Source of the DNA: a virus
Taxonomy: Duplodnaviria > Heunggongvirae > Uroviricota > Caudoviricetes
Length of the DNA: 61,996 nt
Direction: 5' to 3' (one strand)
IMG/VR virus record: IMGVR_UViG_3300029705_000040
Span: 102,209 to 164,204 of that record
The notes under the pieces were generated by a model that was not told the origin of the DNA, did not search any database, and worked only from the letters and a program-made list of their open reading frames with translations. Positions 17,612-48,539 of the stretch are shown here, one piece after another. The translations under genes and the position numbers were made by a program. How positions within the stretch are numbered: position 1 is the first letter of the stretch; the number at the start of each line of letters is the position of its first letter.

Positions 17612-18613
17612 ATGTATAATAAAAATTTGTTCGAAGGATTAGATAAATATTTTGACGATAAATCAGCTAAGAAAAATTTAACTGAAGCAGTAGATAATCA
17701 AGTTTCTAAAGTTAAAATCGAAGCAAAGTATGAAGTATATAATCGTTATGGAGATAATCCAACAAAAACTGTTCAAATTAGCGGCGTTAATTTGAAGGAT
17801 GCTATTGTTAAATTTTTAGATCGTCTCAGAATTTTTCAATATATTGGTTGCGATTATGATATGAGTTTAGAGCAAATTATTTCAAATCTTGAAACATCAA
17901 ATGGCGATGGTTGCGAATATATTTTCTATATTAAAGATTTAACTGACGGTAAAATTGTTTTTGAAGGTAGTTTTAATGATGATGACATCGAAGATTGGGA
18001 TGATCTCGATGAAGCATTAAATGCAGAAGATGCTAGAAATATCGAAGCTGCAACTGAAAAAGCTCAAGCTGCTTTAGATGATGCAAATGCTGCATGCGAT
18101 AAAATTTTGAGAGAAGATGCTGATGATGATTATCCAGAAGAAGAAAAAATTCTAGACTCAGCAGAATTATCTTATGAGAAAGATGGTAAAAAAGTAAGAG
18201 AAAAATTTAATACAGTTATCGAAGCAAAAGAAAGAAGAGAAGAATTAGGGCTTACAAAAGAAAATTCTGTTATTATAGCAGTGTATGAAAGTGGTGAGCT
18301 TGAACTAGTAGAATCAATTTTGAAAGAAGCAGAATGTACTTTACCTGATTGCGAAGAAAAAGCTAAAAACGAAAGCTTAGCAGATAGATTACGCGCTGCT
18401 GTTGCTGGGAAACCATTACCAAAAGACCCAGTAGTTAAAGATGATGAGCCAGATTTACACAAAACTCTAGGCAAATTATCTGATAGATTAAAGAAAAGAA
18501 TGCAAGCAGAATCTGTTGAAGAAAATTCTGAGAAAGATGAAAATTGCGAAGATTGCTTAGAAGAAAATGTATCAATCAGAATGCTAGGTGCTAAAAAGAA
18601 TAAAAATGTTTAA
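17612..18613 (+). CDS. Acidic protein with repeated L-x-E motifs (candidate internal head/scaffold protein)
   Basis: NLFEG, NLTEA, ILRED, ILKEA, CLEEN. Confidence 0.75.
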   Translation: MYNKNLFEGLDKYFDDKSAKKNLTEAVDNQVSKVKIEAKYEVYNRYGDNPTKTVQISGVNLKDAIVKFLDRLRIFQYIGCDYDMSLEQIISNLETSNGDGCEYIFYIKDLTDGKIVFEGSFNDDDIEDWDDLDEALNAEDARNIEAATEKAQAALDDANAACDKILREDADDDYPEEEKILDSAELSYEKDGKKVREKFNTVIEAKERREELGLTKENSVIIAVYESGELELVESILKEAECTLPDCEEKAKNESLADRLRAAVAGKPLPKDPVVKDDEPDLHKTLGKLSDRLKKRMQAESVEENSEKDENCEDCLEENVSIRMLGAKKNKNV

Positions 18614-18806
18614 TTAGGAATTAATCAATTCTATTTTAGATAAATTAGTAGAAGAAAAGAAAATGTCTTTAGGCTTATCGCTTGAAGACATTTCTGATTA
18701 TCTGTACACACTAGAAGATAACTTTGACCACATAAATTCTGAAAAACAAAACGTTATTAAAGAAACGCTTTATTAGTTAGTTGAGTATATAAAAAAGGAA
18801 GAATGA
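18606..18806 (+). CDS. Small hypothetical protein (66 aa with TAG read as Gln)
   Basis: ATG 18606, two in-frame TAG, TGA overlapping next start (ATGA); fills the gap exactly. Confidence 0.6.
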
Positions 18807-19612
18807 AAATGCTTAATGAGGCTAGTGGATTACATTTTGGTGATTTAGAGATAGCTAAAAAAGCTGATGCACGCGGAATAATGTCAGATAGAGGAACAGG
18901 ACATTTTGGCACTGGCTTTTATTTTGTTAGTGATAGATATAAAAATGCAAATTACCATGATCGTGCTTTATGGGATATAGACTACTCAGCTTACAATTTG
19001 TATAAACCTAGATCAAATAGCGAAGCTTATGACCTACATGATGCGTTGAAAGCTTTAAATAATTGCTTTTATATGTACCATTACAGACATCTGTCTGAGG
19101 AATTACTTAATAAGCGAGCATATGAGCTTGAAAGAGAATTAGATGATTTAGAATATGAAAAAGATAATGAAGGAATTCTTGAGTTTATAAATAAATATAA
19201 CCCCAACGCTATCGAAGAATATTATTATTTGCGAGAAGCAATTGATCACAAAAAATGGGGAGTAGTAGAAGAATTCGCTCATGATGAAATAATAAAAGCT
19301 GCTGATAAGTTTAAGGATATGCTAAGAAGAGCAATATTTGATTTGCATTTAATTTTTATCGGTAAAATAGCAGAAGATAAAATTAAAAGTATCATATGGA
19401 AGTTAATTAAAGATGAGTCCTTAGATGAAACTGATGCAGATAGTATTTCAACATTATTTATGAAAGCGTTAGGTTACGAAGGTATTGATGTTACTCATCT
19501 TAATCATGATGCTCAAGGGTTAGCTGGACCAGATAATTTCGCATATGGTTCAGTAATATATGACTTGAAGCCAGGAACATATAAAAAGATAAGAGATAAA
19601 AAAGAAAGCTGA
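18803..19612 (+). CDS. Putative ADP-ribosyltransferase-fold protein with MKMLNEA start
   Basis: LHFG...GHFGTGFYF...LGYEGIDV...GSVIYD pattern. Confidence 0.45.
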   Translation: MKMLNEASGLHFGDLEIAKKADARGIMSDRGTGHFGTGFYFVSDRYKNANYHDRALWDIDYSAYNLYKPRSNSEAYDLHDALKALNNCFYMYHYRHLSEELLNKRAYELERELDDLEYEKDNEGILEFINKYNPNAIEEYYYLREAIDHKKWGVVEEFAHDEIIKAADKFKDMLRRAIFDLHLIFIGKIAEDKIKSIIWKLIKDESLDETDADSISTLFMKALGYEGIDVTHLNHDAQGLAGPDNFAYGSVIYDLKPGTYKKIRDKKES

Positions 19613-19630
19613 GTTAAATCTCAGCTTTTT
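19605..19630 (+). terminator. Intrinsic terminator
   Basis: AAAGCTGAG-TTAAAT-CTCAGCTTT followed by TT. Confidence 0.7.
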
Positions 19631-19640
19631 CCTTATAAAA

Positions 19641-19672
19641 TAGTTGATTATTAATTTGTATTATAGTATAAT
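19641..19672 (+). promoter_or_regulatory. sigma70-type promoter
   Basis: TAG-TTGATT-17 bp-TATAAT. Confidence 0.7.
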
Positions 19673-19819: not shown

Positions 19820-21064
19820 ATGAAAATGAAATTTAAGCTTACAGAAGAAAAGAATGTTAGCAAGACTAGTTGGATAGCATCTGATTATAAAAAACTTGCA
19901 AATCTTGATGAAAGTGCAGTTGTAGCTAAAGAAGATATTGATAGCGATGTTGTAAACAAAGTTGCAGCTAGAAATTATCTTGAGAAAGAAGAAGTAGTAG
20001 AAGCTATTTTAGAAGAGAAGGAAACGCTTACGGAAGCTCCATCTATAGGTGATTCTGCAGAATAGGAAGTAGCTAAAAAACTTGATGCAGAAGTTGTTGA
20101 TGATGAAGATGATGTAAAGAAAGAATTAGATAGAGCTTTAGCTACTGCTAAAAGATTACAAAAACGTGGTAAAAAAGATGGTTACTCAAATATTCTTTTA
20201 GTTGGCGAGGCTGGTACTGGTAAAACATCACGTTGTAAACAGTGGGCTCAAGAACGTGGTGTAAATCTATATGTAAGAAAAGCGATGGACCTTGATGTAA
20301 CAGATATGGGTGGTGCTATTACTCCAGATAAGGAAGGGAAGAAAGTTAATCGTCTTACTTCTAGCGAATGGGATCCACTCGATAGACCTAACTCAGTTTT
20401 ATTCTTAGATGAGTTAAATAGAGCTGCTCCAGATGTTAGAGGTCAATTACTTACTCTAGTTAACAACCACACTGTTTCAGATATTCATAGTGAGTCTGGT
20501 GAAAGATTCCTTCCTAACTTCCTTTTCACTATTGCAGCTATCAATCCATCTGGCGCTGATTATGAAGTTGGTGAGCTCGATGATGCTGAGTATGATAGAT
20601 TTAAAGAAGTAGATGTTGTAGCTAATAAACGCAGTCTTCTTAAATATATGATTTCTTCTTTTGATAAAGATATTGCAGCTAGCACTGATGAAGAAGATAC
20701 TAAAATATTAAAAGGTCAAAAGCAACTCGCTGTTACTTTATTAAGTCATAAAGATTTCAAATTTGATACTTTAGCAGATAAAGCAAAAGCAAAAGATAAT
20801 GGTCAACGTAAGAGCTTATCACCTAGATCTTTTGAAGCAGCCATAAACAATTGTGATGGTACCAAAAATGATTTATTAGCTGTCTGGGGAAGCAACTGCG
20901 GAATGTCTTCTAAAGCTATGGTAGAAAGAATTCTTAAAGATTATAAAGATATTGATGATAAAGCAAATGACGCACTTAAAGGTGGAACAGAATCAGAGGT
21001 ATTTAGTACAGCTAAACCTTTAAGCTCAAGATTAAGAGATAGATTGGCTTCTCAAGGTAATTAA
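19820..21064 (+). CDS. MoxR-like AAA+ ATPase with acidic N-terminal extension (414 aa with TAG read as Gln)
   Basis: One TAG at 20063; readthrough supplies Walker A LLVGEAGTGKT; Walker B VLFLDELNRA; sensor SPRS. Confidence 0.85.
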
Positions 21065-21091
21065 TAAATACTAGTTGGAGGTATAGCATAT

Positions 21092-22642
21092 ATGATGACA
21101 GCAACAGAGCTAGCAGCTAAAAGACAGTTGCTAGACATTCTCAACAAACAGGGCTATCCAACATATTCTAGATTACTCGATCATTTTCATATAAACCTTA
21201 CTAATGACCCCGAAGTTATTGCTTTTATGGAACCTGGTAAAGGTAGAATAGTTTTAAATAGAGGTTTAGACTTAGAGCAAGTTTCTATGATTGTTAGACA
21301 TGAAATATTGCACGAATATTTATCTCATCAATTACGTATGGAAAGACATAAAGGTAAAGATAAATGGGATAAACGTACACCTCAAGAGCATGAAAGAGCT
21401 AATATGGCTGCTGACTATGAAATCTCAAATAGAGGTTATACTGATGCAGATAAAATAACTGCTAGAAGTATTATGCTTAATGGTCAGCTTTTGCAAGGCT
21501 TAGTTACTGATATAGATCATCCAGATTGGGTAAACCTTTCTATGGAAGAGATGTATGACTTGCTTGAAAAAGAAATGAAAAATGAAAAGCAAGAAGCTGG
21601 TAAAAAGATTGTCAGAATCGGAGATAAAGGTGATCAAGCTACTCAAGATGCAGAAGCTGCTCAAAGAGAAGCAGAAGCTATCATTGATGATGCTGACGAA
21701 ATAATTATGGACCCATCGGCTTCGCAAGAAGAAAAGAGCGAAGCAGAGCAAGCTAAAAAAGTAGCTCAAGCGGCAAAAGATCAAGCAAAAAAAGCTGGCG
21801 AGCAAGCTCAAGCAGAAACTCAATCTGCAGATGATCAATCTGATGCAGATAAACCAGCAGAAAATAATAATGATAGCTCTTCTAAAAATAATCAATCAGC
21901 TAATCAAGATGGACCTGTTTTTAGTAAAGATACAGAAGGTAAGTTAGATAAGATAGCTGAAAGAATAGCGAGAATAAATAAAGCTTTATCTGATGTTCAG
22001 CTAGGTGATAAAATAAAAGATGAGACTGCTAGTCAAATTGAAAGAGAAAAACAAATAAAAATAGCTAGAGAAACAGCTAAGTTTAGAAATGACCCATTAA
22101 GACGTTTTGTAGATTCGCTTAATCAATTTATAAGAAAAGAAGTTGGTGTTGGTAGAGGTAAATCTTATGGTAGAATAAATAAGACCTATGCTAACACTCC
22201 GATTATCAGAGCTGGAATAACTAGAAGAGCTGAACAACATATTCCGCTTATAAATGTTTATTTCGATGCATCAGCATCATGGGACGAAGCAAAAATTGCA
22301 GTAGGTAAACGTGGTGTAGCTACACTTAATCAATATGTTCGTCAAGGTAAACTTAAAATAAAAACATATTATTTTGGTGACCATGTATCTGAAAAGAGAT
22401 CGGAAGTTTCTGGTGGTGGGACTGGAGCTATTAGAGAGATTTTTCAACATATAAAAGATACTAAAGCAGATAATGTTGTTATAATGACTGATGGTGATAT
22501 GGATAATCAAGGTGGATCTGTTTCAATTCTAACTGTTCCTGGGGCAGTTTGGTTTTTATTTGTAGATGATGATTGTGATAAATTAAAAGATAATTTACAT
22601 GGGCAAAAATTAACTAAAGAATTTTTCATAAAATCAAAATAA
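21092..22642 (+). CDS. Metallopeptidase-like (HExxH) plus vWA protein (DUF2201-like architecture)
   Basis: RHEILH...ANMAADYEI; A/E/Q-rich linker; VYFDASAS...GGGT...VIMTDG. Confidence 0.8.
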   Translation: MMTATELAAKRQLLDILNKQGYPTYSRLLDHFHINLTNDPEVIAFMEPGKGRIVLNRGLDLEQVSMIVRHEILHEYLSHQLRMERHKGKDKWDKRTPQEHERANMAADYEISNRGYTDADKITARSIMLNGQLLQGLVTDIDHPDWVNLSMEEMYDLLEKEMKNEKQEAGKKIVRIGDKGDQATQDAEAAQREAEAIIDDADEIIMDPSASQEEKSEAEQAKKVAQAAKDQAKKAGEQAQAETQSADDQSDADKPAENNNDSSSKNNQSANQDGPVFSKDTEGKLDKIAERIARINKALSDVQLGDKIKDETASQIEREKQIKIARETAKFRNDPLRRFVDSLNQFIRKEVGVGRGKSYGRINKTYANTPIIRAGITRRAEQHIPLINVYFDASASWDEAKIAVGKRGVATLNQYVRQGKLKIKTYYFGDHVSEKRSEVSGGGTGAIREIFQHIKDTKADNVVIMTDGDMDNQGGSVSILTVPGAVWFLFVDDDCDKLKDNLHGQKLTKEFFIKSK

Positions 22643-22653: not shown

Positions 22654-23316
22654 ATGCATTTAACAGACGCTTTGCAAGATGAAATGTTTATACAAAATTT
22701 AGATAATCAGAACTTCGAAGCATGTTATGAAACGCTAGAAGAAACTGAAAGGTATTAGCTAGCTTTATTTTTAGCAGAAGAAGGTCTAGATCCATTAAAA
22801 GATCTAGACTATATTCCTGATGTTTTATTTTCACATTTATCTTTCGAAACTTTTAATATTCCAGATAGAATTAAAAAGATAGGTAAGCATTCTTTTTCAC
22901 ATAATGATGACCTTGAGTATATAACCTTACCAGATAATATTGAGCTTATAAAATCTTATGCTTTTTATAATTGCAAAAATCTAAAAGAAATAAATATACC
23001 TCAAAAAGTTAAAAAAATAAGTTTCTTCTGTTTTGGTGATTGCGAGAGTTTAGAAGAACTAACTTTACCCGAAGGTATTAAAACCATTGAGCCATGGGCT
23101 TTTTCATCTTGCTTAAATCTTAAAAAGATCTATCTACCAAAATCTTTAGAGCAAATAGAGGCAGCTGCTTTTAATGGTTGTAAAAACTTGAAAGATATTT
23201 TTTATGCTGGAACGATAGAAGAATGGAAGCGAGTATTTAAGGGTAAATCTATTTTTAGAGATGTACCAACTAGACTGGCTAAATGCTCTGATGGTAAAGG
23301 TTTGTTGAGGTAGTAA
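22654..23316 (+). CDS. BspA-type leucine-rich repeat (LRR_5) protein with shared N-terminal module
   Basis: One internal TAG, ends TAG-TAA; repeats such as ITLPDNIELIKSYAFYNCKNL and LTLPEGIKTIEPWAFSSCLNL. Confidence 0.85.
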
Positions 23317-23320
23317 TATA

Positions 23321-23977
23321 ATGCATGAAAATATATAGAAAAAATTAAATTGGTATCTAGATAATGAAACTTTTTGTGACCTTCTAGATAAGCATAATGT
23401 GGTAGATTTATTTGCGGGAGTTGATGAATTCGATATTCCATGGCTTATAGATATACTAAAAGAAGAAGGTGTACAAGTACCACAAACATATTTAAATATG
23501 TATGATTTATCTAGATCACAATGTCCTGTTTTTTCTAAAGTAAATATACTAAATCAAGAAGAATTAGGTTTTAATCTAGAATTACATCTAACGCCTGATT
23601 CTCTTTTTATTATAAAACTAATTAATTTAATCTATTATAAAAATCATTCTGGATTGTTTAATAACATAGATAATCTAGAAACTTTTGGGGATGTTTTACT
23701 TTTAAATGATTTTAATATAGAATATGCTAGTATCTGTATTATTTTAGATAAGCCCTTAGATCCAACTAATATAACAGGATATAACTTACCAAAAGTGCGG
23801 ATAGTTATAGATGGTTTAGATACTATTCTAAGTTTTGAAATTTATGATAGATCTTTTTATGATGCAACTAGTGATTTTGAATTTGATGAAACTGGTTATA
23901 GTTATAAAGTAAACATAAATAAGTTTATACAATCCCTTAATGAAGCATTCGAGTTTATAAACTCTATGAGTATATAA
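23321..23977 (+). CDS. Paralogue-array protein (shared N-terminal module)
   Basis: MHENI(TAG)KKLNWYLDNE aligns with ENIQLRLNKYLENE of the next gene. Confidence 0.8.
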
Positions 23978-23987
23978 GGATTAATAT

Positions 23988-24629
23988 ATGTTTAATATAA
24001 ATAATGAAAATATACAATTGAGATTAAATAAATATCTAGAAAACGAAGAGTGGGTAAATGCTTTAGATTCTTTTGATCTCGAAAAAGTATTTAAGTTATC
24101 TAGTGTAGTAGATTATATCTGGTTATGTCATCTCTTAGAGGAAGAAAACTTAGAAATACCTCATATTTATAATAGATTTAAAGATATTAAAATACAGCAT
24201 GTAGATAAAAACTCTTTCAAATTATATCAAGACGTAAGCTCTAGAGAAGATGGGCCTATGTTTGAGTATGAAGTTAATTTAAAATCAAAAGCAGAAACAT
24301 TAAAACTTTTACATCTAGTATATTTTACTGATTTATTAGATGATTATATCTATTGCTGTGATTTAGATTTAGAAACTGATATAGAAATACAAAATATAAA
24401 TCAAGCATGGTTTGCTGTAGATAGTTACACAATAGACATTGATAGATTTAATGATTTAAATGCTTATAGTAATATAAAATTACATTGCTTAATAAAAAAT
24501 TATATGACTACTATAATTATTCCAGATAATAAATCTTTCTATAAACATAAAGGGTCTTATTATACAGTAGATAAAGAAGCTCTCATAGATGCAATTAATA
24601 ATTTTATCGATGAGTTAAATAGGTGGTAA
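23988..24629 (+). CDS. Paralogue-array protein
   Basis: ORF track; NALDSFDLEKVF...LLEEENLEIP. Confidence 0.8.
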   Translation: MFNINNENIQLRLNKYLENEEWVNALDSFDLEKVFKLSSVVDYIWLCHLLEEENLEIPHIYNRFKDIKIQHVDKNSFKLYQDVSSREDGPMFEYEVNLKSKAETLKLLHLVYFTDLLDDYIYCCDLDLETDIEIQNINQAWFAVDSYTIDIDRFNDLNAYSNIKLHCLIKNYMTTIIIPDNKSFYKHKGSYYTVDKEALIDAINNFIDELNRW

Positions 24630-24631
24630 TT

Positions 24632-25246
24632 ATGGATATGACTATTGAAGAATTATTACTCAGTGAAGATGGAATTAAAGCTATAGACGAGGAAAACTTT
24701 ATAAAAGCTTATGACTTGCTTGAAGAATTTGAAAGACCTAAACTCACCAAGTTATTTTATAGTGAAAATATTGATCCATTAAATTATATGTGTCTTATTC
24801 CTAAACGTTATATGGATAAAAGTTTCAATAAAAGATTGATACGTATTCCAGAAAATATAGTTTTAATAAGCCAGGAAGCATTTATAGGATGTGATAACAT
24901 TTGTCAAATAGATTTTTCAGAAAGAATAACTCGGATAGGTATGTTAGCTTTTTCTGATTGTACTAACTTAAAAGAATTAACTTTTCCTAGAAGTCTTGAA
25001 GTATTAGATCAATGGGCCTTTACTGGTTGTAAAAATCTAAGAGAAATTCATTTCGAGAAAGATTATTTACGTTATATAAGTAATTATGTATTTGGTGAGT
25101 GCTCTCAGTTAGAAATAATAACATATACTGGAACTATTGATGAGTGGCGAAAAATAGATATAGCAGGTGACGCTTTTAAGGGTGCTAGGACAAAAAATGT
25201 GCGATGCGCAGATGGCATATTTTCTATTTATGAGGATGAGGACTGA
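24632..25246 (+). CDS. BspA-type LRR_5 protein with shared N-terminal module
   Basis: IRIPENIVLISQEAFIGCDNI, LTFPRSLEVLDQWAFTGCKNL; YTGTIDEW cap. Confidence 0.85.
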   Translation: MDMTIEELLLSEDGIKAIDEENFIKAYDLLEEFERPKLTKLFYSENIDPLNYMCLIPKRYMDKSFNKRLIRIPENIVLISQEAFIGCDNICQIDFSERITRIGMLAFSDCTNLKELTFPRSLEVLDQWAFTGCKNLREIHFEKDYLRYISNYVFGECSQLEIITYTGTIDEWRKIDIAGDAFKGARTKNVRCADGIFSIYEDED

Positions 25247-27034: not shown

Positions 27035-27049
27035 GAAAGGAAAGATAGT

Positions 27050-27487: not shown

Positions 27488-27498
27488 GGAAATATATT

Positions 27499-27957: not shown

Positions 27958-27959
27958 AG

Positions 27960-28361
27960 ATGAAATTTCGATTAGTAGAAGATATAGTAACAGAATCAGA
28001 TTTAACTGATAAAAATTTAATAAAAGAATTGCAAGATAAATTTGGATCAGATTTCGATAGCAAACCTTTATGCAAAGAAGTTACAGAATATATCTCTACT
28101 AAATTTGGTGTAAAAGGTTTATATTATACTGTACTAGTCCTATCAAAAGAAGATGGATTAATATCAGCAAATGGCCACTGTGTAATTTATCATAATAATA
28201 GACTTTATGACTACACATCAAATCAATATTGCAATTATTCTGGAATAGAAAAATCAGAATGTCCCAGAATATTGTATTTCGATAAAGAAATATCAGATAA
28301 GCTAGGTATGAAATCATACTCAAGCGGTAATTATATAGTTTGTGTATCGGAGCATGTATGA
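27960..28361 (+). CDS. Small protein with MKFRLVE start and Cys-His-Asp motif (papain/transglutaminase-like fold candidate)
   Basis: LCKEVT...NGHCVIY...LYDYTSNQY. Confidence 0.5.
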   Translation: MKFRLVEDIVTESDLTDKNLIKELQDKFGSDFDSKPLCKEVTEYISTKFGVKGLYYTVLVLSKEDGLISANGHCVIYHNNRLYDYTSNQYCNYSGIEKSECPRILYFDKEISDKLGMKSYSSGNYIVCVSEHV

Positions 28362-29613: not shown

Positions 29614-29614
29614 T

Positions 29615-30952: not shown

Positions 30953-31693
30953 ATGAAATTATTGAAAGAAGAATTTGAAATACATGAAACATTAAATAAA
31001 AAACTATTTGACGAAGATCATATTCTCCGCAAAGATGTAAGAAATACCTTAATGAAAATAGCTGACATGTTTGTAGGATCTATGCAAGAAGATCAAGTAC
31101 CACTAAAAGTATATGATTATTGGTTGGTGGGTTCTAATGCAGCTTATAATTATACACCAACTTCAGATATAGATATACACATTATAGTTGATATGGATAT
31201 GGGTGTCAATCCTTATATTCTTAGACTTCTTTATGATTATATCAAGAGCAGCTTTAATGATAAATATGATATTAAAGTAAAAGGCCACGAAGTAGAACTA
31301 TACTTAGAAGATATAAATACTAGCGCAGTGACTAATGGTATATATTCTCTAAAACAAAATAAATGGATTAAAGTTCCTATTCAAGAAGAGCCTAAGAAAA
31401 TAAATATAGAAGATTCTCAATTATATAAAGATGCATACAAAAAATATCAAGAATTAAAAGATGATGAAATCGAAAAATTTATAGATGATATGTATGTTAT
31501 GAGAAAAATAAGTTTAGCTAATGATGGTGAGTTTGGCGAAGGTAATTTAGTTTTCAAAGAATTCAGAAATAAAGGCTATCTTGATGATTTAAAAGATAGA
31601 AAATACGCTTATAAGAGTAAAGAATTAACTTTAGAGAAATTAGCTATTTCTTCTGCTACGCTTGATGGTGAGGAGACATGTAATGGATTTTAA
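30953..31693 (+). CDS. Pol-beta-superfamily nucleotidyltransferase with MKLLKEE start
   Basis: LVGSNAAYNYTPTSDIDIHII...HEVELYLED...EGNLVFKEFRN; true start after GGAG RBS. Confidence 0.8.
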   Translation: MKLLKEEFEIHETLNKKLFDEDHILRKDVRNTLMKIADMFVGSMQEDQVPLKVYDYWLVGSNAAYNYTPTSDIDIHIIVDMDMGVNPYILRLLYDYIKSSFNDKYDIKVKGHEVELYLEDINTSAVTNGIYSLKQNKWIKVPIQEEPKKINIEDSQLYKDAYKKYQELKDDEIEKFIDDMYVMRKISLANDGEFGEGNLVFKEFRNKGYLDDLKDRKYAYKSKELTLEKLAISSATLDGEETCNGF

Positions 31694-34121: not shown

Positions 34122-34535
34122 ATGAAATTTAAACTAGTAGAAAAATTTACAATAGAAGCGTGGCAAATAAAAGATGATGTTGTGATAAAAGGGACACTTT
34201 TTAAAGCTAATATTGAGTTAAATAATTAGCAATTCTTTTCATTCGATCAACCTGATGGAAAAGTTTATTGGATAAAAGGGTTAGATAATTGCTGCATAAT
34301 ATTTAAAGCTATCACACCTACTATTAATCCTGGCTTTATACATCAAGAATTTGAAAGAGAAATCCAAAAATATAAACCTATAACAGAAGCTAGTTTTACA
34401 GCATATGTAGATGCTAGAGGTGAGTTTGCTATTGAATTAGATTCTATTTTACATAATAAAGAATTTAAGTCTTTTGCTAGAGACTTGAAATTAACTATAG
34501 AAGATTATTATATATAGCCGGATGATGATTATTGA
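34122..34535 (+). CDS. Hypothetical protein with MKFKLVE start (2 TAG)
   Basis: Absent from ORF track; ATG 34122 to TGA 34533. Confidence 0.7.
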
Positions 34536-37021: not shown

Positions 37022-37039
37022 CTTTTATGGGGGTATATT

Positions 37040-37651: not shown

Positions 37652-37655
37652 TCTT

Positions 37656-38295: not shown

Positions 38296-40515
38296 ATGGT
38301 TGATATAATTAAAGCTGTTAAAGAAAAATTTAATGCTTCTAATTATCCAGTATCAGGACCTACATATATTCTTCCCGATGGATCATTTTTAGATATAGCT
38401 GGAACTTTTGATCCTAAAAATAGTTTTGAAGATTTTCCATGTCATGCTGAAGTAGAAGGTTTTCTTTTAGATATTGGCTTATCTAATCAAGTAGTAGATG
38501 TATCAGGTAGCCCTACTTTAGAAAGCTTAGGTGCTATAAGATGTAATGACTTAGCGGATAATAATTTTGTTCAATTAAGCAATATAAGACCCACTTCTGA
38601 TTAGTATGAAAGTTTGGAAAATTGGATATATGAAAATGCTACGCATAGAAGCGAGCTTATAGTAGCTACACCTGAATTTATTCAATATAAAAAATATGAT
38701 CCAGAAGATGTTGAGTACATTATCAAAAGAATAAAAAGATACTATACATCAGGTACTTTATATGAGAGTAAATGTAGCATATCTTATAAAGATATTTCAG
38801 ACCTCGATCGCTATAAAAAATCTGCAAATGAGATTCTTGGCGGTTGGGGTAGCCAATCTGATAATGGAATATTAGATAATACTAAAGAAATATATGTAGA
38901 TGATAAATTAGTTGGTTACATAAGTTTCGAAGAATTTGATGATATCGAGGGTTATAATAAAGCATTAGGTTTCGGCAACTTTATGATTTTAGATAGAGGT
39001 AAAGGTTACGGAACATAGGTTTTAAAAGATTTAATCCAAAGATATAGAGATACTTTTGATCTTATTTATTGTTTTGTAAATTCTGATAATTATGATGCTA
39101 TAAAACTTTATAAAAAATTAGGTAAAGTGTATGATGAAGATGGGCCTAATGATGATAATCAATATTATGTAACTTTTTGGGATAATAAATATATGTCAAT
39201 TAATGAAAATGTGTCAATAAAAGAAGCTAAAAAGAAAAAGAAGAAGAAAAAAGCTTTAGGCTGGTGGCAAACTTTTACACCTGATGCTGGTAATGTACTG
39301 TTTAATAATGCGTTTTTCAATCATGCAATGGGAAACACAACAACAGATGAGTTTGTTGCAGAGGCTGGCGAAGCTTTAGCTGGTGATTGTGGCGCTGGTT
39401 TAGGTGAGTCCTTACAAAAAGAAACATATTTTAGAGTAGAAGTTTTCCATGATGGTAAACATATAGGTGGATTATTTAGAGGCTTAAATGATCTAATAAA
39501 TGATTTGTACGAAGCAGATGACCCATATTATGATTACTTAAATGATCCATTAAGCGAGTTAGAATATAAAACAACATTTCCAAAAAATTTCGATAATAAA
39601 GATGCTATCTTCGCATATAAAGAAGATAAGTATGAAGAATTAGAAGAAACAATTTTAGATTTACAATACGCATTAAATGAAATTGGTTGGGATATAAAAA
39701 TTAAAGAAATATCTAGACCAAAAAATATTGTATATGAAGATAATGAGCAGATAGCTTATATTCTTGAAAATATAGATGAAAAAGATAAGGTAACAGAAAA
39801 TATGCATAAAGAAGTATTTAGATTTTATGGAAAAGATAAGCAAGGTGATGATATAGAATATAAAATCGATGGCGTATCTTTTACAGATGCTATTGAGGTA
39901 TTTATTAGAATGTATCCTGATGTAGAGGATTGGGATGTAGAAACTTTAAAAGAAGATGTTGATTTTAATAATGTGCAATGGGGTGTACATCAATTCTCTA
40001 CTGAGTCTATTATATTTAGAGGCACTCAAGAAGAATGTCAAAGATATATCGATGATAGACCAGAATTATGGGATGATGCAGAAGTTTATTTTATGACACC
40101 AGATGATCCACATTATATTAAATCAGAAGAAAAACAACCTTTGATAGAAGCTGGAGAAGAAAAAGTCTATCAAGTAATTGTTAAATATAAAGATGAGCCA
40201 GCTCAAAAGTTAGAAGCTAGAATCGCAAAAAACAGAAAAGATCTTGAGTATCAATTAAGTACAGACCCAGACGTAGAATGGTATGATTTTGATGAGAAGC
40301 AATTTAACGAAGATAAAGATGAAAAACAAATTTGTTGCATCTGTGGAAAAGAATATGATGGTTATGGAAATAATGCTGAACCTGTAAAGGCTGGTAGATG
40401 CTGCGATGATTGCAACATTAATCAAGTAATTCCTGCTAGATTATTAAAGATAAATGTTTCTGAAAATAAGTCAATGACAGAAATTTTCCAAAATCTAAGC
40501 AAAATTAAAAAATAA
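38296..40515 (+). CDS. Multidomain acidic protein with GNAT acetyltransferase and C-terminal zinc finger (739 aa, 2 TAG)
   Basis: TAG 38602 and 39016 join three ORF-track pieces; RGKGYGT(TAG)VL...NYDAIKLYKKLG; CCICGKEYDGYGNNAEPVKAGRCCDDCN. Confidence 0.8.
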
Positions 40516-40528: not shown

Positions 40529-42709
40529 ATGAGCGAAAAATATATAGAAAAAGAATTAAACGAGGCTTGGGATCCTAAAGAAATAGCAAAGCAAGATGCA
40601 GAGTTTGCATGGGAAACTGGTCATCCTATGGATCCAGCAGAATGGGAGAATGATGATAAGAAAAACATCATGACCGAATATGATTTCACAGAAGAGCAAG
40701 CAGAAGCATACAAAAATTTCTATTGGGATTATTATTATATCTGTATGGCTGGCGATCCATATAACGACGATGATGACTTAGATGAAAACTTAACCGAAAC
40801 AAAAGCAACAGGCGCTAGAGGTCGTTATCAAGTAGAAGTATTTGATGAAGGGGATTGGCACAAGTTAAATTGTTGGTCAACAATCGAAAAAGCTACTAAA
40901 GCTGGTGAAGCTGCTGTAGAAGCTGTTTATCAAGATTATAGAATCATTGATAAAGAAACTAATAACGAAGTTGAGCTCCAAGAGAAATTACATAAACCTA
41001 CTATAGATACTTTAACAGATGATTTAAGAGAGTTAGCTAAAAAAGCTGATGCTGAGATTACTAGATCAGGTATCGAATGTATGGTCGCTGCTAAAGATGG
41101 TTATGTTATTGCTATCCAAGCAGTTGATCCTACTAAAATGAAACAGGTAGATGAAATTGTAACAAAAGTAGCAGAAGACTTTGATTTTGTTCCTGATATT
41201 GAAAGAAAAGAAAAACCTAACGGCACTGTACATCTTTATAGATTTAAGAAAGTACAAAAACTCGCTATTAAAGAGAATGTTATCGAAGAAGAATCTGATG
41301 GCGATATCCCTTATACAAAAGAAGAAGTAGAAGCTGAATTAAAACGCGAAACTAATAATTGGGAAACTAAAGAAGATACTATTAGATATGGCTTCCAAAG
41401 TGAAAAAGATTTTGCTATGGAAATACTTTCTCAGCACTACGAATGTGAGTATAAAGGAAAAGAAGGTAGCGATTATGTTATCCACTTCTGGAAGGAAGAT
41501 CTAACAGAGACCTTCGATGATGAAGATTATGATGAAGATGAAGATTATGATGATTCCTATTATGAAGATTGGTATGAGGTCGGATTTGTTCTTGGTGAGG
41601 AAAATGATTCTTATGAATTTTTGTATGAATTCATAGATAGTGCTCCCACAGAAGACAGTGCAATAGAAATTGCGAAAAAAGCTAGAGATAGTTCAGATTG
41701 GGAAAGTTATTCAGAATATGATATTGTTGTAATCCATGTAGAAGATTTTGGTGATGGCCCTAACATATATAATGGAGTGCATCAAGATGCATCCGATGGT
41801 GAAGTATATAGAATACCTGGAAAAGAATTGGATGAATCCATCGACACAGCAAGAACTAAAGCACAAAAATTAAGAAAGAACTCAGATACAGTGACAGAAG
41901 GCGTCTTTAATAGATTATTAGGTAGAAATATTGGCATCTTCAATAAACATAGTGGTGAAGGCCCAAAATACGCAATACTTGATCCAAAGAAAGAAAACGA
42001 GTTTATTGAAAAGATAAAACATATAGATCCAAAGAATTGGGAAGTTTGCGAATACATCGAAAAGAATGGTAAAGTTATTAAAGGTAACCCTGTAGACAAA
42101 TATAACAAAATTATGACTGATTATCAAGCTGGCATTAAGAAACAACTTGATGATATAAATGCAAAGAAAGCTCAACAAGCAAAAGATGCTGAAGAGCAAA
42201 GAAAGCAAGAATTAAAGAAACAACCGCACTTCTCAATTGATCCAAAAACAGGTGCAAAGAAATATAGAGATTTGGTTGATGAAGAAGATGCAATAGATGC
42301 TCAAATAAATGAAGATGCTGCGGATATAGAAAAACCAAAGTATGAAGTAGGCTCTGAAAAAGTGTTCGCAGAAGATTCTGAAGAATATGCTCAACTACAA
42401 AAAGCAGCAGATAAATTGACTGATTTGAGCGTTAAAAATTATAAATATTTTGTTGGCAACACTTATTTAGATTTCGGTTCAGGTTGGCAATGGACAACCA
42501 TTCTCGCTAAAAAGCCTAATGAAGTAGAATTTCAGGTATTAAGTCCATTATCGTGGAGAAATATTTTAAATGCTCAATCAGAAGAAGAGCTGGATGCTGC
42601 TATCGATCAATTAAGATCTGATGAGTACTTCCATGATAAAATCGAAACACCTAATGCTAGCTCAAGCGAAAGAGATATTTTCAATTATCTAAACTCAATA
42701 GAAGATTAA
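40529..42709 (+). CDS. Large acidic multidomain protein with repeated L-x-E motifs
   Basis: LNEAW, LTETK, LQEKL, LTETF, LDESI, VTEGV, INEDA. Confidence 0.8.
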   Translation: MSEKYIEKELNEAWDPKEIAKQDAEFAWETGHPMDPAEWENDDKKNIMTEYDFTEEQAEAYKNFYWDYYYICMAGDPYNDDDDLDENLTETKATGARGRYQVEVFDEGDWHKLNCWSTIEKATKAGEAAVEAVYQDYRIIDKETNNEVELQEKLHKPTIDTLTDDLRELAKKADAEITRSGIECMVAAKDGYVIAIQAVDPTKMKQVDEIVTKVAEDFDFVPDIERKEKPNGTVHLYRFKKVQKLAIKENVIEEESDGDIPYTKEEVEAELKRETNNWETKEDTIRYGFQSEKDFAMEILSQHYECEYKGKEGSDYVIHFWKEDLTETFDDEDYDEDEDYDDSYYEDWYEVGFVLGEENDSYEFLYEFIDSAPTEDSAIEIAKKARDSSDWESYSEYDIVVIHVEDFGDGPNIYNGVHQDASDGEVYRIPGKELDESIDTARTKAQKLRKNSDTVTEGVFNRLLGRNIGIFNKHSGEGPKYAILDPKKENEFIEKIKHIDPKNWEVCEYIEKNGKVIKGNPVDKYNKIMTDYQAGIKKQLDDINAKKAQQAKDAEEQRKQELKKQPHFSIDPKTGAKKYRDLVDEEDAIDAQINEDAADIEKPKYEVGSEKVFAEDSEEYAQLQKAADKLTDLSVKNYKYFVGNTYLDFGSGWQWTTILAKKPNEVEFQVLSPLSWRNILNAQSEEELDAAIDQLRSDEYFHDKIETPNASSSERDIFNYLNSIED

Positions 42710-42838: not shown

Positions 42839-45082
42839 ATGAAAGGTATAATAAATGAAGCTCTTAGCCCTCAAAAGCTTATTACAGGTGACAGATACTT
42901 ACAGTTTTTTGATGGTAAAGCTGCTAACATATATGCAGATAAAGAAGATAAAATTAAATATGCTTGCAAATTATTAAACATAAAAAACATATCAGATATT
43001 CTAGTGTATTCTGTTGCTGATCCTGCTATGTATTCTCAGATAAGATTATATTTGAGTAAGGTGCAATCATCAGCAAACTTAGCAACTGTTGTGAAAAAGA
43101 TTTTTAAGCAAGCAGTATCTATGAAATTTAAGGAAGTGGATTTAAGCAAACAAACAAAGAATGCTAAAGGAAAAGCTATGCTATGTCCAGCTTTTAATTG
43201 TGTTGTTTTTCAAGATATGTTTGCTTTCAAAGATAGAGGATCTTTTACAAAATTTAGTGAATTTTTAGAAAGTAAATCTGTAAATACATCTACAATAGAA
43301 ACTGATACAGTTTCTGATACAGCAGATACATCTGTAACTAGAGAAGAACGGGATGATTACGGAAATTTGAAAAAAGTAATCCACATTGAAAAAACTGATG
43401 CTGGAAAATATTACGCTAAAGTTGCATAGATACCTGAAATTTCAAAACAAAGATTCGAATCACCAAAAGATGCTGAAAGTTATGCTAGAAAAGTTCTTGA
43501 TAAGAATGGTTATAAATCTAAAGAATTTGCAGTAGATGGATCTTTTACAGCTGAAAAGAAAACAAATAGAAGTGTATCAGTAGATGGATCTGGAAATGTA
43601 ACAGCATTTAATTTTAGTGTTACAAATGCTGATGGTGAAACTGAAACAATATCAGAAGATCCTAAAAATCTTGCTTTCATTATTGGTGGTAAGGTTTATG
43701 GATATAACAAATATAAAGGTATGAACGCTAAACAGAAGAAGCAAGCTATCATAATTAAGAGATCTGGATTAGTTGGCTAGACTATTATAGAAAGTTTGCA
43801 AGATTTTGCTGATTTGGAAACCTATTTACCTGACTATATAGATATTATAGAAAATGGTGAGAAGTATATAATAAATAATAAAGAAACAAACGAAAAAGTT
43901 TCTGTTAACATATCTGGTAACGATAATGAAGATTGTCGCGAAATTATTTATTCTCTATATAAAATAACTGGAGGAAAATTAGATTTGAAAAACTTTATTG
44001 ACGAATTAAATGAGTGTGGAAATGAAAAAATTCTTGAAGCTAGTGATTCTAGTATCTCTGAGGTTAGCTTTATGACTGTACAGGATTTATTATCTGACAT
44101 GATTGGAAATGTTCCAGAAAAGCAACTAGATGATGAGATGAAAAAATTTAAGAAATTTGCTAGAATACTGCATGTTAAAGATTTTGGTGATGTTTTAGTT
44201 ATGGTAGATGAAGGTGAGAGAGATCCTTCTGAATTATTCCCTGATGGTAGATATCACGTAGTAAATGAAGAAACTGGTGAGCATGAAATCTATTTTGATG
44301 AGCAAGGTATCGTCGCAGAATATACAAATGGTTTAATTTACATTTATTTTGCTAGCGAAGATATTATGAATAAATTTATTAAAGCATCTGATGAATTTTT
44401 AAGATCATTTGAAATCGAAGAAAATCCTTTTGTAGAAGAAATTTTAGAATTCGGTGATGTTATGTCTATAGAAGAATGCTTAAACATTTTAGATAAGAAT
44501 TCTAACAATAAATTTGATCTTCTTAATTGCTATTTAAGTGAGCATTTCACTACTGATGAAAAATGCAAAATAGCTGAAATGATTAAAGAAGGTTACTCAA
44601 AGGATTCTTTACAAAAATATCTCAAAGAAAAAATTGTAGATAAAGATTTTGTTTTAACCGAAGATCAGGATGAAGAAGAAATTTCAGAAGATGATATGAC
44701 TATCGAACAACTTCTTTTTGCTATGGTAGAAGATCAAGGTCAAGAATACGGCTCAGTATCTATATATGATAAAATGTCTCTAGATAAAGCTGTAGATTGG
44801 TTAACAACTCGCGGCTATGATTATGATATACAGCAAATAGAAGAAGATGGTTGGGAGTTATTCTGGGAAAAGAAACCTGATGCTTCTGAATATGGTTCTT
44901 CAAGTGATTCTATAAATAAAACAGTTGCTCAAAATATATTAAAATCTTTAAGAGATGTTCAAGAAATGCTTCATGATATTATGACTGAATCATCAGCAAC
45001 AAAATCAGCTGCTGATTATGATCAAGATATTCAAGAAAAGCTTCAAGCAGCTTTAGATGAAGCTAAGAAATTTGATTATTAA
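42839..45082 (+). CDS. Large multidomain protein with MKGIINEA start (747 aa, 2 TAG)
   Basis: TAG at 43427 and ~43778 join ORF-track 42839 and 43796 in frame. Confidence 0.8.
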
Positions 45083-45097: not shown

Positions 45098-45940
45098 ATG
45101 TTATTGAATGAAAATCTATTTAAAGAATGGGTTGATGATGGGTTTGATTGGGAACAAGTAGCATCTAAACAACTAGAAGATTCAGATGGATTCATGACTG
45201 ACTACACCTGGTACAAAAGAATTCTTCCTTCAAGTGAAGAACAACATATATTTATCTTCGGTGACTCTGACTTATATGGTCCAGATGATTCTCACGCTGA
45301 TGCCGAATTTGATTCATATAAAGCAGCTGAAGATTGGTTTAATAGCTATAATGGATTCGCAGATGATTTAGATGAATCTGTAAATAAGAACGAAAAAAGT
45401 CAATATGTTTCTGGAAGATATGTTTATTTTAAATATAAGCAAGTAGAAGGTATGACTGCTGAGCAATTAGCTAAATCTATAGAAAAAGCTTATAGAGAAA
45501 AATTTAGAGATGAGATAAAAGTTACTCACATCGAAAAGCATTCTTATGATTTCTCAAATAAAGAAATTCCTTATATTGTTTCAGCTGATGGCGTTTATGA
45601 TGGTGAAGAAAAAATAAGAGGTTTCTGGGCTGTAATTAATTGCAACGAAGAAGAAGGAAAAAATCTTCCAGAAGATACTATTATTGAGTGTTTAAAAGAA
45701 GGCGCTGTCAAAGATATAGCTCTTGAAATTGAAGAAGCTGGTGGTAAAGATATTTGGCTAGCTGAAATGAAAAGAAAAATTGAAGATTGCAAAGATATGC
45801 TAAAGTATCTCAAAGAAACTGCACCTAGAGAAATTAATAGGGGTGGTGCTTATGATTCTTATGCAGATATCCAGGAAGCGATAGATGAAATTACTGCAGC
45901 TCTTGACGAATTAGAAGCAAAATATTCTATTGCTGCATAA
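45098..45940 (+). CDS. Acidic protein with L-x-E motifs
   Basis: MLLNENLFKE, LDESV, LKEGA; GGAGG RBS. Confidence 0.8.
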   Translation: MLLNENLFKEWVDDGFDWEQVASKQLEDSDGFMTDYTWYKRILPSSEEQHIFIFGDSDLYGPDDSHADAEFDSYKAAEDWFNSYNGFADDLDESVNKNEKSQYVSGRYVYFKYKQVEGMTAEQLAKSIEKAYREKFRDEIKVTHIEKHSYDFSNKEIPYIVSADGVYDGEEKIRGFWAVINCNEEEGKNLPEDTIIECLKEGAVKDIALEIEEAGGKDIWLAEMKRKIEDCKDMLKYLKETAPREINRGGAYDSYADIQEAIDEITAALDELEAKYSIAA

Positions 45941-46041: not shown

Positions 46042-47379
46042 ATGAAATTAAAGAAATATAAATCAATGCATGAAGCTGTTGAGGTTAGTGATATTGATTA
46101 TAGCACTATGGATCATGTCATGGCTGGTGCTTATAGAGAATCTGAAGAACTCAAGAAAAGAGCAGAAAAAGCTATGGAAGATAGAAAGCTTGAGATGCCT
46201 AACGAAGATATAGAAGCTCACAAAGATATTAAATCAGATGACATGAAAAAAATGCATTTATGCGAATCTTTCTTTGAAGAATTTATTTCCGATGAAGACC
46301 TTACAGAAGCTACAATAACTGAAGCTGCTTATACAGATGAGCATATACAATACATAGAAGATTCTTATAAAGCTGTTTGTAAATATTATACATCTGTAGA
46401 AGCTGTAGTAGACGCTTTTAGATCAGAAGCTGAGCTTATGGATGCTTCAGAAGTTATTGATGATATTGCTATAACTCTTCGCGAAAAAATAGAATCAGTT
46501 TCAGAAAGTAAAAAAGAAGATTCTGAAGGTGAGCTTTTAACTGAGTATAAAAGACAGGAAGGATCTAAATTAGTTTATAAACAAAAGAGAGATTCTTTAG
46601 CAGAAATTATTCAAGTAGAATTAACAGAAGGCGAATGGGGTTATGTAGAAAACCCCGATGGTTCAACATCACCTACCCGATTACCTTCTGCTAACTATTT
46701 AGATGACAAAATTGGCGTAGTCTTTGGAAGAGATGATTCTTGCTCAATTAGAATTTGGGCTAAAGATGAAGAAGCATTACAACCAGCTGTAGACATTGCT
46801 AAAAAATATGGAAAAGATTATAAAGTTGGTTCTGATAAATATGTTCAATCAGAAGATAAATTCTATTGCGATATCTTTTTGACAGAAGAAGATTGGGAAG
46901 GTCATTATTTTGATCCAAATGTTCCAGTAGCTAAGTCTGAAAAGCCTTCAAAGAAAAAAGTAGAAGAGCTTGAAGAAGATATTAAGGAAGATAATACAGA
47001 TATCGAGACTAAAGAGGAATGTATCCATCCCAGCGAAGAAATTGAGGAATCTATCGAAGATGTCGAAAAGGAAATTCTTACAGAAGCTAGAATTTCAACA
47101 GAAGGCCTAAGAAATTTCAGACCCTGGGATGGTGCAGTAAATACTTATCAAAGAATAGTAGAAGCTAAGAAATTAGATACTTTAGAATTTATGCTTGAAG
47201 ATATGTATCCAAACGGGGTTGGTGCTAATGAGTTAAATGACATGCTTCAATTCGAATCTGATTGGATTTTAGAATCTTTAGGTTTAATTGAAAAAACTGA
47301 TGATTCTGATGATGATATTTATGAAACAGTAATTGGCCCAGATGGTAATCCAATGAAAAAGCTTAAAGAAACAATTTAA
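46042..47379 (+). CDS. Acidic protein with many L-x-E motifs (candidate head-core protein)
   Basis: MHEAV, LCESF, LTEATITEA, LTEYK, LEEDI, LTEAR. Confidence 0.8.
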   Translation: MKLKKYKSMHEAVEVSDIDYSTMDHVMAGAYRESEELKKRAEKAMEDRKLEMPNEDIEAHKDIKSDDMKKMHLCESFFEEFISDEDLTEATITEAAYTDEHIQYIEDSYKAVCKYYTSVEAVVDAFRSEAELMDASEVIDDIAITLREKIESVSESKKEDSEGELLTEYKRQEGSKLVYKQKRDSLAEIIQVELTEGEWGYVENPDGSTSPTRLPSANYLDDKIGVVFGRDDSCSIRIWAKDEEALQPAVDIAKKYGKDYKVGSDKYVQSEDKFYCDIFLTEEDWEGHYFDPNVPVAKSEKPSKKKVEELEEDIKEDNTDIETKEECIHPSEEIEESIEDVEKEILTEARISTEGLRNFRPWDGAVNTYQRIVEAKKLDTLEFMLEDMYPNGVGANELNDMLQFESDWILESLGLIEKTDDSDDDIYETVIGPDGNPMKKLKETI

Positions 47380-47390
47380 GCTGGAGGTAC

Positions 47391-48119
47391 ATGATGGGAT
47401 ATTTAGATAGAAAAGCTAGAATAAAATTCTATGAAGAATTAAAAAAAGCTGGTAAAACAAAAATACAGCTTCAAGAAAATTTATTGAAAGAAGAAGCTGA
47501 AACTGTTCCAGTAGTTGTAGTAACTTCAGAAGAAGTTGCGCCTTGCTCTATTCCAGTAATGGATGAGTGCCCAGTTGTGGTGGAACCAAATAAAGAAAAC
47601 GATCCAGGTGAACCAAAATCTGTTCCAACAGAAGATATAGGAATAGCTGACATGCTCATATAGGCTATTACTGATGAGTATGCTACAATTGCTCAATATA
47701 ATTCTTTAGTAGCTATTTTAAATGACACAGGATATTCAGAGTTAGCAGCTGTTGTAAGTCATATAAACGAAGAAGAGCAAATCCATGTTGGTATGTTACA
47801 ACATGCTATGGAAGAAGTTTCAAAGCAAGCTAAAAAAGTTGAAGATGGTAAGCAAGAAGCTGAGCAAATAATTTCAGGCGAACCTATTGTAGAAGAACCT
47901 GTTGTAATAGAAGTTGCGCCAAAGGTTGCTGAGCAACCTTTAGAAGAAGCAGTAAAAGAAGATAAAATAGAAGAAGCTCAAGCTTTAGTTGATGCAGCTA
48001 TTAAATGCTTTGGAAGAATTGGCGGTGGCTTATATGATGACTTAGATGAAATGGGTCTATATGTAGCAGAAGAAGATGGAAATTATATTGTAAAAAAGAA
48101 AGTTCCAGACGCTGAATAA
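47391..48119 (+). CDS. Acidic protein containing a ferritin-like helix pair (1 TAG)
   Basis: IADMLI(TAG)AITDEYATIAQY...INEEEQIHVGMLQ; joins ORF-track 47391 and 47793. Confidence 0.7.
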
Positions 48120-48137
48120 GTCTTCGGGAGGTTTTAT

Positions 48138-48539
48138 ATGAAAATTTTATTAGTGGAAGATTTTTCAGAAGAATTTGATTTTTCAGAAGAATTAGAATAC
48201 TACGCAGATGATGTTGTAGATGACGAAGATTCTGGAAAAGTTTCTGGATCAGTTTATGTACAGATAGATTCAGACGAAGTTTTAACATTCTTTTGGGAAC
48301 ATGCTGACATAGATATAGATAAACATCCAGAATTAGAAGATGATTTAAACTGGAAAAAATATGTAAAAGAAAATTACGAAGAGCTTTGGGAAAATCTAGG
48401 TGAAGCTTTATAGGATTATTATAAAGATAGAGCTAGAGATAAAGTCTATGATAATTGGGATAATTATGCTATAGAAGACGAATCACCCTATGATGACCGA
48501 GCAGAGCTTCTGAGAGATTATTACAGAAACGTATTATAA
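48138..48539 (+). CDS. Acidic protein with MKILLVED start (1 TAG)
   Basis: Readthrough of TAG 48411 ends at TAA 48537, immediately before a terminator. Confidence 0.8.

Follow-up and report, generated by a model that had tools for sequence, protein, structure and literature searches.

A short N-terminal motif on unrelated proteins of an uncultured giant phage as a candidate T4-style capsid-targeting and processing tag

Mutually unrelated proteins of an uncultured tailed phage start with the same short peptide, which is probably a tag by which, as in phage T4, numerous packaged effector proteins are targeted to the capsid and processed. They are encoded at positions 17,612 to 48,539 (the region) of a DNA stretch of 61,996 nucleotides, hereafter called the window, which comprises positions 102,209 to 164,204 of IMG/VR record IMGVR_UViG_3300029705_000040 (Caudoviricetes). 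The consensus of the tag is M-K-[FIL]-[KRL]-[LI]-x-E, at times lengthened to 12 residues with [ILV]-[NT]-E at its end. An earlier note on this DNA, made from its letters and open reading frames (ORFs), had drawn attention to these starts as well as to L-x-E motifs inside the large acidic proteins of the region. In the following, genes and proteins are named by the window position of their first nucleotide (Table 1).

A hydrophobic residue two positions ahead of a glutamate ([LIV]xE) is present within the first 10 residues in 18 of the 36 region genes compared with 31 of 237 genes (13%) elsewhere in the genome (Fisher test, 1.7e-6), its frequency in internal 10-residue windows being 0.18. Since about 20 of the 36 genes are paralogues of a single array (22654-38294) that have a helical N-terminal module in common but vary in their C-terminal halves, the array genes are not independent of each other. 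Among the non-array genes, 10 of 16 carry the motif in their first 10 residues, whereas permutation of residues 2-10 within each protein, by which composition is kept, gave a mean of 4.0, and none of 2000 shuffles reached 10 (p<0.0005). The same shuffle test gave no enrichment for the array genes and for genes outside the region, and five control motifs, among them the mirrored E.[LIV], [LIV].K, [LIV]E and [LIV]..E, were not significantly enriched at the N-termini. Hence, it is the arrangement hydrophobic-x-Glu and not composition that carries the effect. With a stricter definition of the tag (Met, Lys/Arg, 1-5 residues, [LIM]-x-E), the 31 kb preceding gene 48670 contain 6 tagged genes among 35, compared with 3 of 238 elsewhere. 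In BLAST comparisons within the genome (E<=1e-3), tagged proteins are unrelated to each other, just as the earlier note had assumed. The N-terminal part of the observation is therefore real and beyond chance. Moreover, synonymous codons vary between the tags of different genes (TTA, CTA and CTT for Leu, GTA and GTG for Val), which places selection at the level of the peptide; a nucleotide-level element as explanation of the shared start was ruled out on the same grounds.

Viral contigs of 174-220 kb encode relatives of the giant protein located at the end of the window (57412-61995; at least 1528 amino acids (aa) in the window); G001 (54% identity; 2338 aa), G002 and G003 are the closest of them. 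In the syntenic 31 kb of G001, the strict tag is present in 6 of 41 genes compared with 4 of 241 elsewhere (p=9e-4), and tagged starts in this genome read MKFRIVEN, MKIKKLNE, MKFHKLTE, MKIRQLNE, MKFKKLTLSE and MKRRTIDE. In two cases, the tag has been retained although the sequence behind it has not. Similarity between the 27960 protein and a 210-aa protein of G001 is confined to the first 12 residues (7 of 12 identical, 11 of 12 positive). Likewise, the G003 orthologue of the AAA+ ATPase, the gene of which closely precedes the head module, shows 36% identity from residue 103 onwards and starts with MKINKIITE/S, and the intervening 95 residues or so cannot be aligned. Stand-alone homologues of the module that makes up the 18803 protein begin with MKFRLVE, MKFKLIE, MKFRLLE, MKFLIE, MKFKLVENLSE or MKFRLVESITNE, immediately followed by the module. 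Homologues of the 30953 nucleotidyltransferase start with MKLLKE, MKFIKE, MKFRLVE or MRFKLFE, and forms with an ART domain in front with MNFKLVE or MRFKLVE. On a metagenomic contig of 13.7 kb from the same phage group, 7 of 20 genes start with MKF[KR]L[VQ]E or similar, including one for an ART-PolyVal protein. Across relatives and metagenomic contigs, MKF[KR]L[VI]E is thus found on proteins that are unrelated to each other, including ART-PolyVal, nucleotidyltransferase and polyvalent-protein modules.

The domains that had been guessed for the region proteins were largely recovered by Pfam, namely AAA+ (19820), GNAT (38296), nucleotidyltransferase (30953) and ferritin/rubrerythrin-like (47391), while an ART-like identity of the 18803 protein is a lead only. 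A Pfam scan of this protein gave no match at E<=0.01, and its BLAST similarity to an ART-PolyVal protein is not significant. Its Atlas features, with scores of 0.91-0.93, point to ART-PolyVal, RES and AcrIF11. An exhaustive profile search found the 18803 module at full length in 458 representative homologues, mostly internal to proteins of 600-5000 aa (up to 5014 aa). It is thus a module shared with multidomain proteins that carry ART-PolyVal and PBECR domains: of two such proteins scanned, P0166 contains ART-PolyVal and PBECR5, and P0147 contains ART-PolyVal. As the module adjoins the ART-PolyVal domain in polyvalent proteins without overlapping it, the 18803 protein was not assigned to ART-PolyVal (PF18760).

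For the 30953 nucleotidyltransferase, 207 homologues were found on large phage contigs, either alone, with a variable C-terminal extension, or behind N-terminal domains including ART-PolyVal and YafQ/ParE-type toxin families. The domain seems to resemble a carrier module: among the homologues P0003-P0122, about half add 70-180 variable C-terminal residues, and others place ART-PolyVal, DUF3990 or a YafQ/ParE-type toxin in front. Glu6 is conserved in at least 90% of the homologues, and in an AlphaFold (AF2) model (pLDDT 86) residues 1-7 form a low-confidence coil before the fold. According to this model, the conserved glutamate looks like part of a recognition site. A Foldseek search with the model returned only weak matches to the pol-beta fold, all with E>1e-3.

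Most large proteins of the region have no family in Pfam or PHROGs, and the same applies to all tagged G001 proteins. The 40529 protein gave no match by tblastn either, and a pattern scan of viral contigs found no relatives of it. Such a scan was also negative for the 42839 protein, which has only two near-identical homologues and partial homology to a 588-aa G001 protein starting with MKIRQLNE. At least three modules can be distinguished in the 38296 protein and at least two in the 46042 protein.

Apart from the N-termini, an [LIM]xE motif was found at three module boundaries that are defined by homology; to this extent, the proposal that such motifs mark domain boundaries holds, though not as a bulk enrichment. 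At internal joints ahead of the 18803 module, close homologues (E<1e-30) have Glu five positions before a conserved His in 32 of 59 cases, in 26 of which [LIVM] is also present two residues earlier. Among distant homologues, Glu occurs in 11 and [LIVM]xE in 5 of 57. Because the motif is rare in these distant homologues, the fold itself does not need it, and it is a trait of one phage subfamily. The second boundary lies in the 38296 protein, with the C-terminal part of which a tagged, stand-alone G003 protein of 253 residues is collinear. Here, the internal sequence INE-NVS-IKE aligns with the end of the G003 tag (ITE and a Lys-rich run). Eight Lys residues (312-319; window 39226-39249) directly follow the proposed joint, at the spot matching the Lys-rich run of the G003 homologue, and could be slippery for the ribosome if their codons are homopolymeric. 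In the 46042 protein, finally, the phrog_5149 module starts at residue 349, immediately after L-T-E (aa 346-348, nt 47077-47085). A homologue has L-V-E at this joint, and stand-alone forms of 72 residues begin at the same point.

A search for a gp21-like protease, the enzyme expected to process such tags, had a divided outcome, as it is absent from the partial record and present in the closest relatives, where its gene adjoins those for the portal (gp20-type) and the capsid protein (gp23-type). G001, G002 and G003 all have a Gp23-type capsid gene, and G001 has a Portal_T4 (gp20-type) match of 144.6 bits. Peptidase_S77 (gp21-like) domains were detected in G001 and G003 with 45 and 49 bits (Pfam cut-off 27), encoded directly upstream of the capsid gene. 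In both cases, the same polypeptide continues from the S77 domain into a long acidic coiled-coil tail that resembles a scaffold (G001 L036:12228-13781; G003 L023:22-1932, - strand), whereas protease and scaffold are separate genes in T4. Given portal, S77 protease and gp23-type capsid protein in the relatives, this lineage builds heads as T4 does, and the window phage would be predicted to encode an S77 protease of its own. The relatives' head proteins also contain sites of the type in question. Capsid proteins of all three conserve L-[FL]-E at residues 5-7 as well as [FW]-M-[NT]-E followed by Ala/Ser near residue 50, the latter being a plausible maturation site with Met at P3. The G003 protease has I-L-E at residues 8-10, reminiscent of an L-I-E that T4 gp21 has close to its N-terminus (PMC9026906).

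Expression of the region appears to be late or middle-late, together with structural genes. A promoter-like motif, GCTAAATT(A/T), is present in the record in 20 copies on the + strand, 16 of which lie in the 10% intergenic DNA, and in two copies on the - strand. Seven copies belong to the region (Table 1) and further copies in the window are located at 1983, 7441 and 7560; in the first 14 kb of the window, sigma-70-like TTGATC...TATAAT sites are found instead. Late expression is plausible because the motif is shared with the tail-fibre operon and most region genes contain an in-frame TAG. However, since the motif also precedes homing-endonuclease-like, i.e. non-structural, genes elsewhere in the genome, it does not prove late expression. 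It looks like a T4 late promoter in shifted form, and a factor encoded by the phage may recognise it.

The mechanism that we infer for the tag comprises targeting, cleavage, packaging and injection. The N-terminal peptide would dock the cargo protein on the scaffolding core of the prohead, and the S77 (gp21-type) prohead protease would then cleave after the Glu of the tag. Mature cargo would remain in the head and leave it together with the DNA. In cargo chains of several modules, the protease may additionally separate the modules at [LIM]-x-E joints. Such cargo would include modules typical of injected conflict proteins, i.e. the module adjoining ART-PolyVal, the nucleotidyltransferase that is elsewhere fused to ART or RNase-toxin domains, and GNAT. 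Going one step further, and only tentatively, the head protease of a clade of giant gut phages might double as polyprotein processor, with dozens of effector modules being loaded by tags of 7-12 residues, cut at [LIM]-x-E and injected. In that case, the modules would be ART-associated, nucleotidyltransferase, GNAT, RNase-toxin and other domains.

Several observations weigh against a capsid-targeting tag. The tag is short, degenerate and much less uniform than in T4, and both the regular expressions and the limits of the region were in part picked after the data had been seen. The strict tag is not significantly enriched in G002, nor is the loose [LIV]xE motif in the first 10 residues genome-wide in G001-G003. 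Furthermore, the claim that the large acidic proteins are punctuated by L-x-E did not survive comparison with composition, an outcome that the earlier note itself had named as speaking against it. Inside the region proteins, 263 internal [LIV]xE were counted compared with 199 expected from shuffles (about 1.3-fold), the controls E.[LIV], [LIV].D and [LIV].K gave the same ratio of about 1.3, and outside the region the numbers are similar (728 vs 614, 1.2-fold). The 42839 protein alone shows a clear internal excess (27 vs 14.9). In the nucleotidyltransferase family, nearly all members have [LIM]-x-E ahead of the domain, be it N-terminal or internal, and such a near-universal motif could be part of the domain or a domain cap. 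With regard to the enzyme, neither a head gene nor an S77, S78 or Gp23 family was found in the record, which ends inside the giant protein gene, and the protease is deduced from relatives with only about 50% identity in the giant protein. Finally, tagged proteins are strongly acidic, in contrast to the basic internal proteins of T4, and a MoxR-type ATPase is an odd capsid cargo.

Some of these points would also fit a genuine N-terminal signal with another purpose, for instance a docking site for a chaperone (such as the adjacent MoxR/DUF2201 pair), for a modifying enzyme or for another part of the virion, or else a propeptide that the head protease removes from proteins which serve in assembly only and are not delivered. 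The presence of the tag on the AAA+ ATPase and on very acidic proteins unlike T4 internal proteins speaks for such a purpose. Yet the motif ends in the P3/P1 pattern of a T4-type protease, the relatives' capsid protein and protease themselves have such sites close to the N-terminus, injected conflict proteins contain the same modules as the cargo, and no alternative candidate enzyme was seen to co-occur; we therefore regard another purpose as unlikely. A further option is that there is no signal at all and that an AT-rich composition (Lys, Leu, Ile, Glu), ordinary strands or helices at the N-termini of small domains, hidden paralogy and post hoc examples feign one. Indeed, the motif is low in information, the first helix of the roughly 20 paralogues often contains LxE, counts of the loose motif in relatives are at background and internal LxE is unremarkable. 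MKILLVED, the start of the 48138 protein, is moreover a common start of response regulators. This explanation is quite improbable, however, given the outcome of the composition-keeping shuffles with flat controls, the low rate among other genes of the same genome, the recurrence of the tag on non-homologous proteins across genomes and the conservation of Glu6 within an unstructured tail of the nucleotidyltransferase. A feature of translation initiation, i.e. A/U-rich unstructured first codons in strongly expressed late genes, would account for the fact that many tagged genes stand first after the promoter-like motif and that AAA is frequent at codon 2. But the tag is missing from genes that follow this motif elsewhere, which also excluded the tag as a trait of this promoter class, tail-fibre genes start with MA, synonymous codons vary in the tag, and the motif recurs at internal joints, making this feature a very remote candidate.

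All gene positions given here depend on the genetic code applied. The window, with a G+C content of about 30% and all genes on the + strand, is the terminal 62 kb of a 164-kb viral record, the completeness of which is estimated at 76% (CheckV). Under the standard code, the region between 17.6 and 48.5 kb displays numerous gaps and short ORFs, whereas reading TAG as a sense codon closes every gap and results in 90% coding DNA, all on the + strand; Gln (Q) is the working assumption for the inserted residue. The coordinates on which the earlier note had relied (38296, 42839, 47391 and the end at 48539) match only ORFs in which TAG is sense. Start codons were refined by Shine-Dalgarno pairing, upon which all eight N-termini it had quoted were found in place. 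The starts of 27960, 30953 and 45098 lie inside the longest ORF, each with a good Shine-Dalgarno site, and the start of 30953 is further backed by the promoter-like motif 37 nt upstream. Two tandem tRNAs with CUA anticodon, which would read TAG, are encoded upstream of the window in the record; they are among 35 tRNA genes located there (record 27231-27403 and 34330-55373). RNA genes or introns were rejected as cause of the ORF gaps seen with translation table 11, since a tRNA and Rfam scan of the window found zero families and the gaps close with TAG as Gln. The source phage is best read as an uncultured phage with a genome of roughly 215 kb, TAG as sense codon and a T4-type head, and the stretch as a hypervariable late-gene region. 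By megablast, 20 kb of the window had no match among sequenced phages. For ten large proteins encoded upstream of the window, the functions found were accessory only (RNA ligase, kinase, NAMPT), and none belonged to a T4 replication core.

Table 1 Features of the window between positions 17,562 and 48,539 (a slash follows the Glu that ends a motif)
Feature	Position	Strand	Remarks
Promoter-like motif GCTAAATT(A/T)	17562..17570; also 19729, 30916, 37002, 42752, 45984, 48624	+	copy at 48624 precedes tail-fibre operon
333-aa acidic orphan	17612..18613	+	starts MYNKNLFE/G; second NLTE/A at residue 25; first gene after promoter-like motif; no Pfam/PHROG family
269-aa stand-alone copy of polyvalent-protein module (about 260 residues)	18803..19612	+	starts MKMLNE/A
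414-aa MoxR-like AAA+ ATPase	19820..21064	+	Pfam AAA_5; one in-frame TAG; acidic N-terminal extension of about 100 residues; starts MKMKFKLTE/E
516-aa DUF2201_N metallopeptidase-like partner of AAA+ protein	21092..22642	+	untagged
133-aa orphan within paralogue array	27960..28361	+	12-residue tag MKFRLVEDIVTE
246-aa pol-beta-type nucleotidyltransferase	30953..31693	+	Pfam NTP_transf_2; starts MKLLKE/E; own promoter-like motif at 30916
137-aa orphan	34122..34535	+	two in-frame TAG; starts MKFKLVEKFTIE/A
739-aa acidic multidomain protein	38296..40515	+	N-terminal domain, Pfam GNAT (aa 199-276), G003-collinear module; starts MVDIIKAVKE
Internal joint of 38296 protein, INE-NVS-IKE (aa 302-310)	39199..39225	+	followed by poly-Lys run; aligns with tag end of G003 stand-alone homologue
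726-aa very acidic orphan	40529..42709	+	net charge -82; L-N-E/A at residues 10-12
747-aa acidic orphan	42839..45082	+	two in-frame TAG; starts MKGIINE/A
280-aa acidic protein	45098..45940	+	starts MLLNE/N; homologue of N-domain sits in head and tail module of G001
445-aa acidic protein	46042..47379	+	M-H-E/A at residues 9-11; C-terminal phrog_5149 module
242-aa rubrerythrin/ferritin-like protein	47391..48119	+	untagged; orthologues start MKFKKLTLSE (G001) and MKFSKLFLDE (G002)
133-aa very acidic orphan	48138..48539	+	starts MKILLVE/D

The MoxR-like ATPase and its DUF2201_N metallopeptidase-like partner form a gene pair (19820-22642), and the in-frame TAG splits the ATPase under the standard code. 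Inside the paralogue array, and far from the main tail-fibre genes (51597-56903), a fibre-like protein of 457 aa, the N-terminus of which is weakly of the Mtd_N type, is encoded at 35582-36955. The C-terminal halves of the array proteins 22654, 24632 and 32331, together with one copy upstream of the window, match residues 2085-2200 (approximately) of the giant G001 protein. Homologues of the giant protein with 23-32% identity also occur in Bacteroides and human-gut phages of 42-48 kb, where they are annotated as hypothetical only. A second, distinct N-terminal peptide, ...FETNSSS.H..., is shared by paralogues at record positions 13090, 26608, 87580 and 88831.

If the tag works like the capsid-targeting sequence of T4, it marks those proteins of an uncultured giant phage which are carried in the head and delivered before transcription of phage genes. 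The delivered proteins would then be a first line against host defences, and the acidic orphans would become a defined class in which anti-defence or host-takeover activities can be sought. T4-style, protease-dependent head loading would thereby be joined with the polyvalent effector proteins of phages, two concepts that have been treated separately until now. Moreover, a short sequence for finding injected proteins in metagenomes would be at hand, as the injected set could be read from tag and joint alone. The reading also predicts concrete cleavage sites that can be checked by mass spectrometry.

The closest known counterpart is the capsid-targeting sequence (CTS) of T4, MKTYQEFIAE, which the features described here match point by point in sequence. 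In both cases, an N-terminal peptide of about 7-12 residues on unrelated proteins ends in hydrophobic-x-Glu (hydrophobic P3, Glu P1), the lineage (here judged from the relatives) combines a T4-type S77 protease with a portal and a capsid protein of the gp23 type, the genes lie in a hypervariable region, and one cargo may be ART-related, as Alt is. In contrast to T4, the consensus MKF[KR]L[VI]E is more degenerate and known from sequence alone, the cargo is acidic, large and multidomain instead of small and basic, the motif also occurs at internal joints, protease and scaffold form a single protein (in the relatives) and TAG is a sense codon. The CTS of T4 is present on IPI-III and Alt and is cleaved off by gp21, the prohead protease (Mullaney and Black 1996, reviewed in PMC9026906; PMC3012670). 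For IPIII, the first 10 residues suffice for head loading, residues 4 and 7 being important in targeting and residues 8 and 10 in gp21 cutting, and the otherwise diverse internal proteins of T-even phages have the CTS as their only common part (PMC9026906, PMC3012670).

Polyvalent proteins of phages and conjugative elements (Iyer, Burroughs, Anand, de Souza, Aravind 2017, PMC5512222) resemble the present cargo in their modules, as the 18803 module occurs with ART-PolyVal and PBECR5, members of the nucleotidyltransferase family have ART-PolyVal and RNase-toxin domains as fusion partners, and the predicted role is that of effectors delivered with the DNA. They differ in that most modules of the region are separate genes or short chains, each with a tag or an [LIM]xE joint, and in that the proposed processor is the prohead protease and not an embedded peptidase. 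In phiKZ, 201phi2-1 and SPN3US, head and inner-body (ejection) proteins are cut at S/A/G-x-E by gp21-like proteases (PMC9026906, PMC5694885, PMC10052503). Like the phage described here, these are giant phages in which many packaged proteins are cut, or in our case would be cut, after Glu by a T4-related protease, and their propeptides contain several sites. However, P3 is Leu/Ile/Met here, as in T4, instead of a small residue, the N-terminal tag is far clearer than reported there, and no sign of phiKZ-type genes was seen in the record. The Dar antirestriction system of phage P1 (DarA, DarB, Hdf, Ddr, Ulx; PMC9024508, PMC12810830) likewise places large anti-defence proteins into the head during assembly for later injection, but its loading follows an ordered protein-protein dependence without a shared cleavable N-terminal tag, and no homology to it was found. 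Hence, the principle of the tag is already known from T4 and polyvalent effectors from comparative genomics, whereas the tag consensus, the size and number of cargo proteins, the motif at module joints, the protease-scaffold fusion and their occurrence in a phage with TAG as sense codon are distinctive of the present system.

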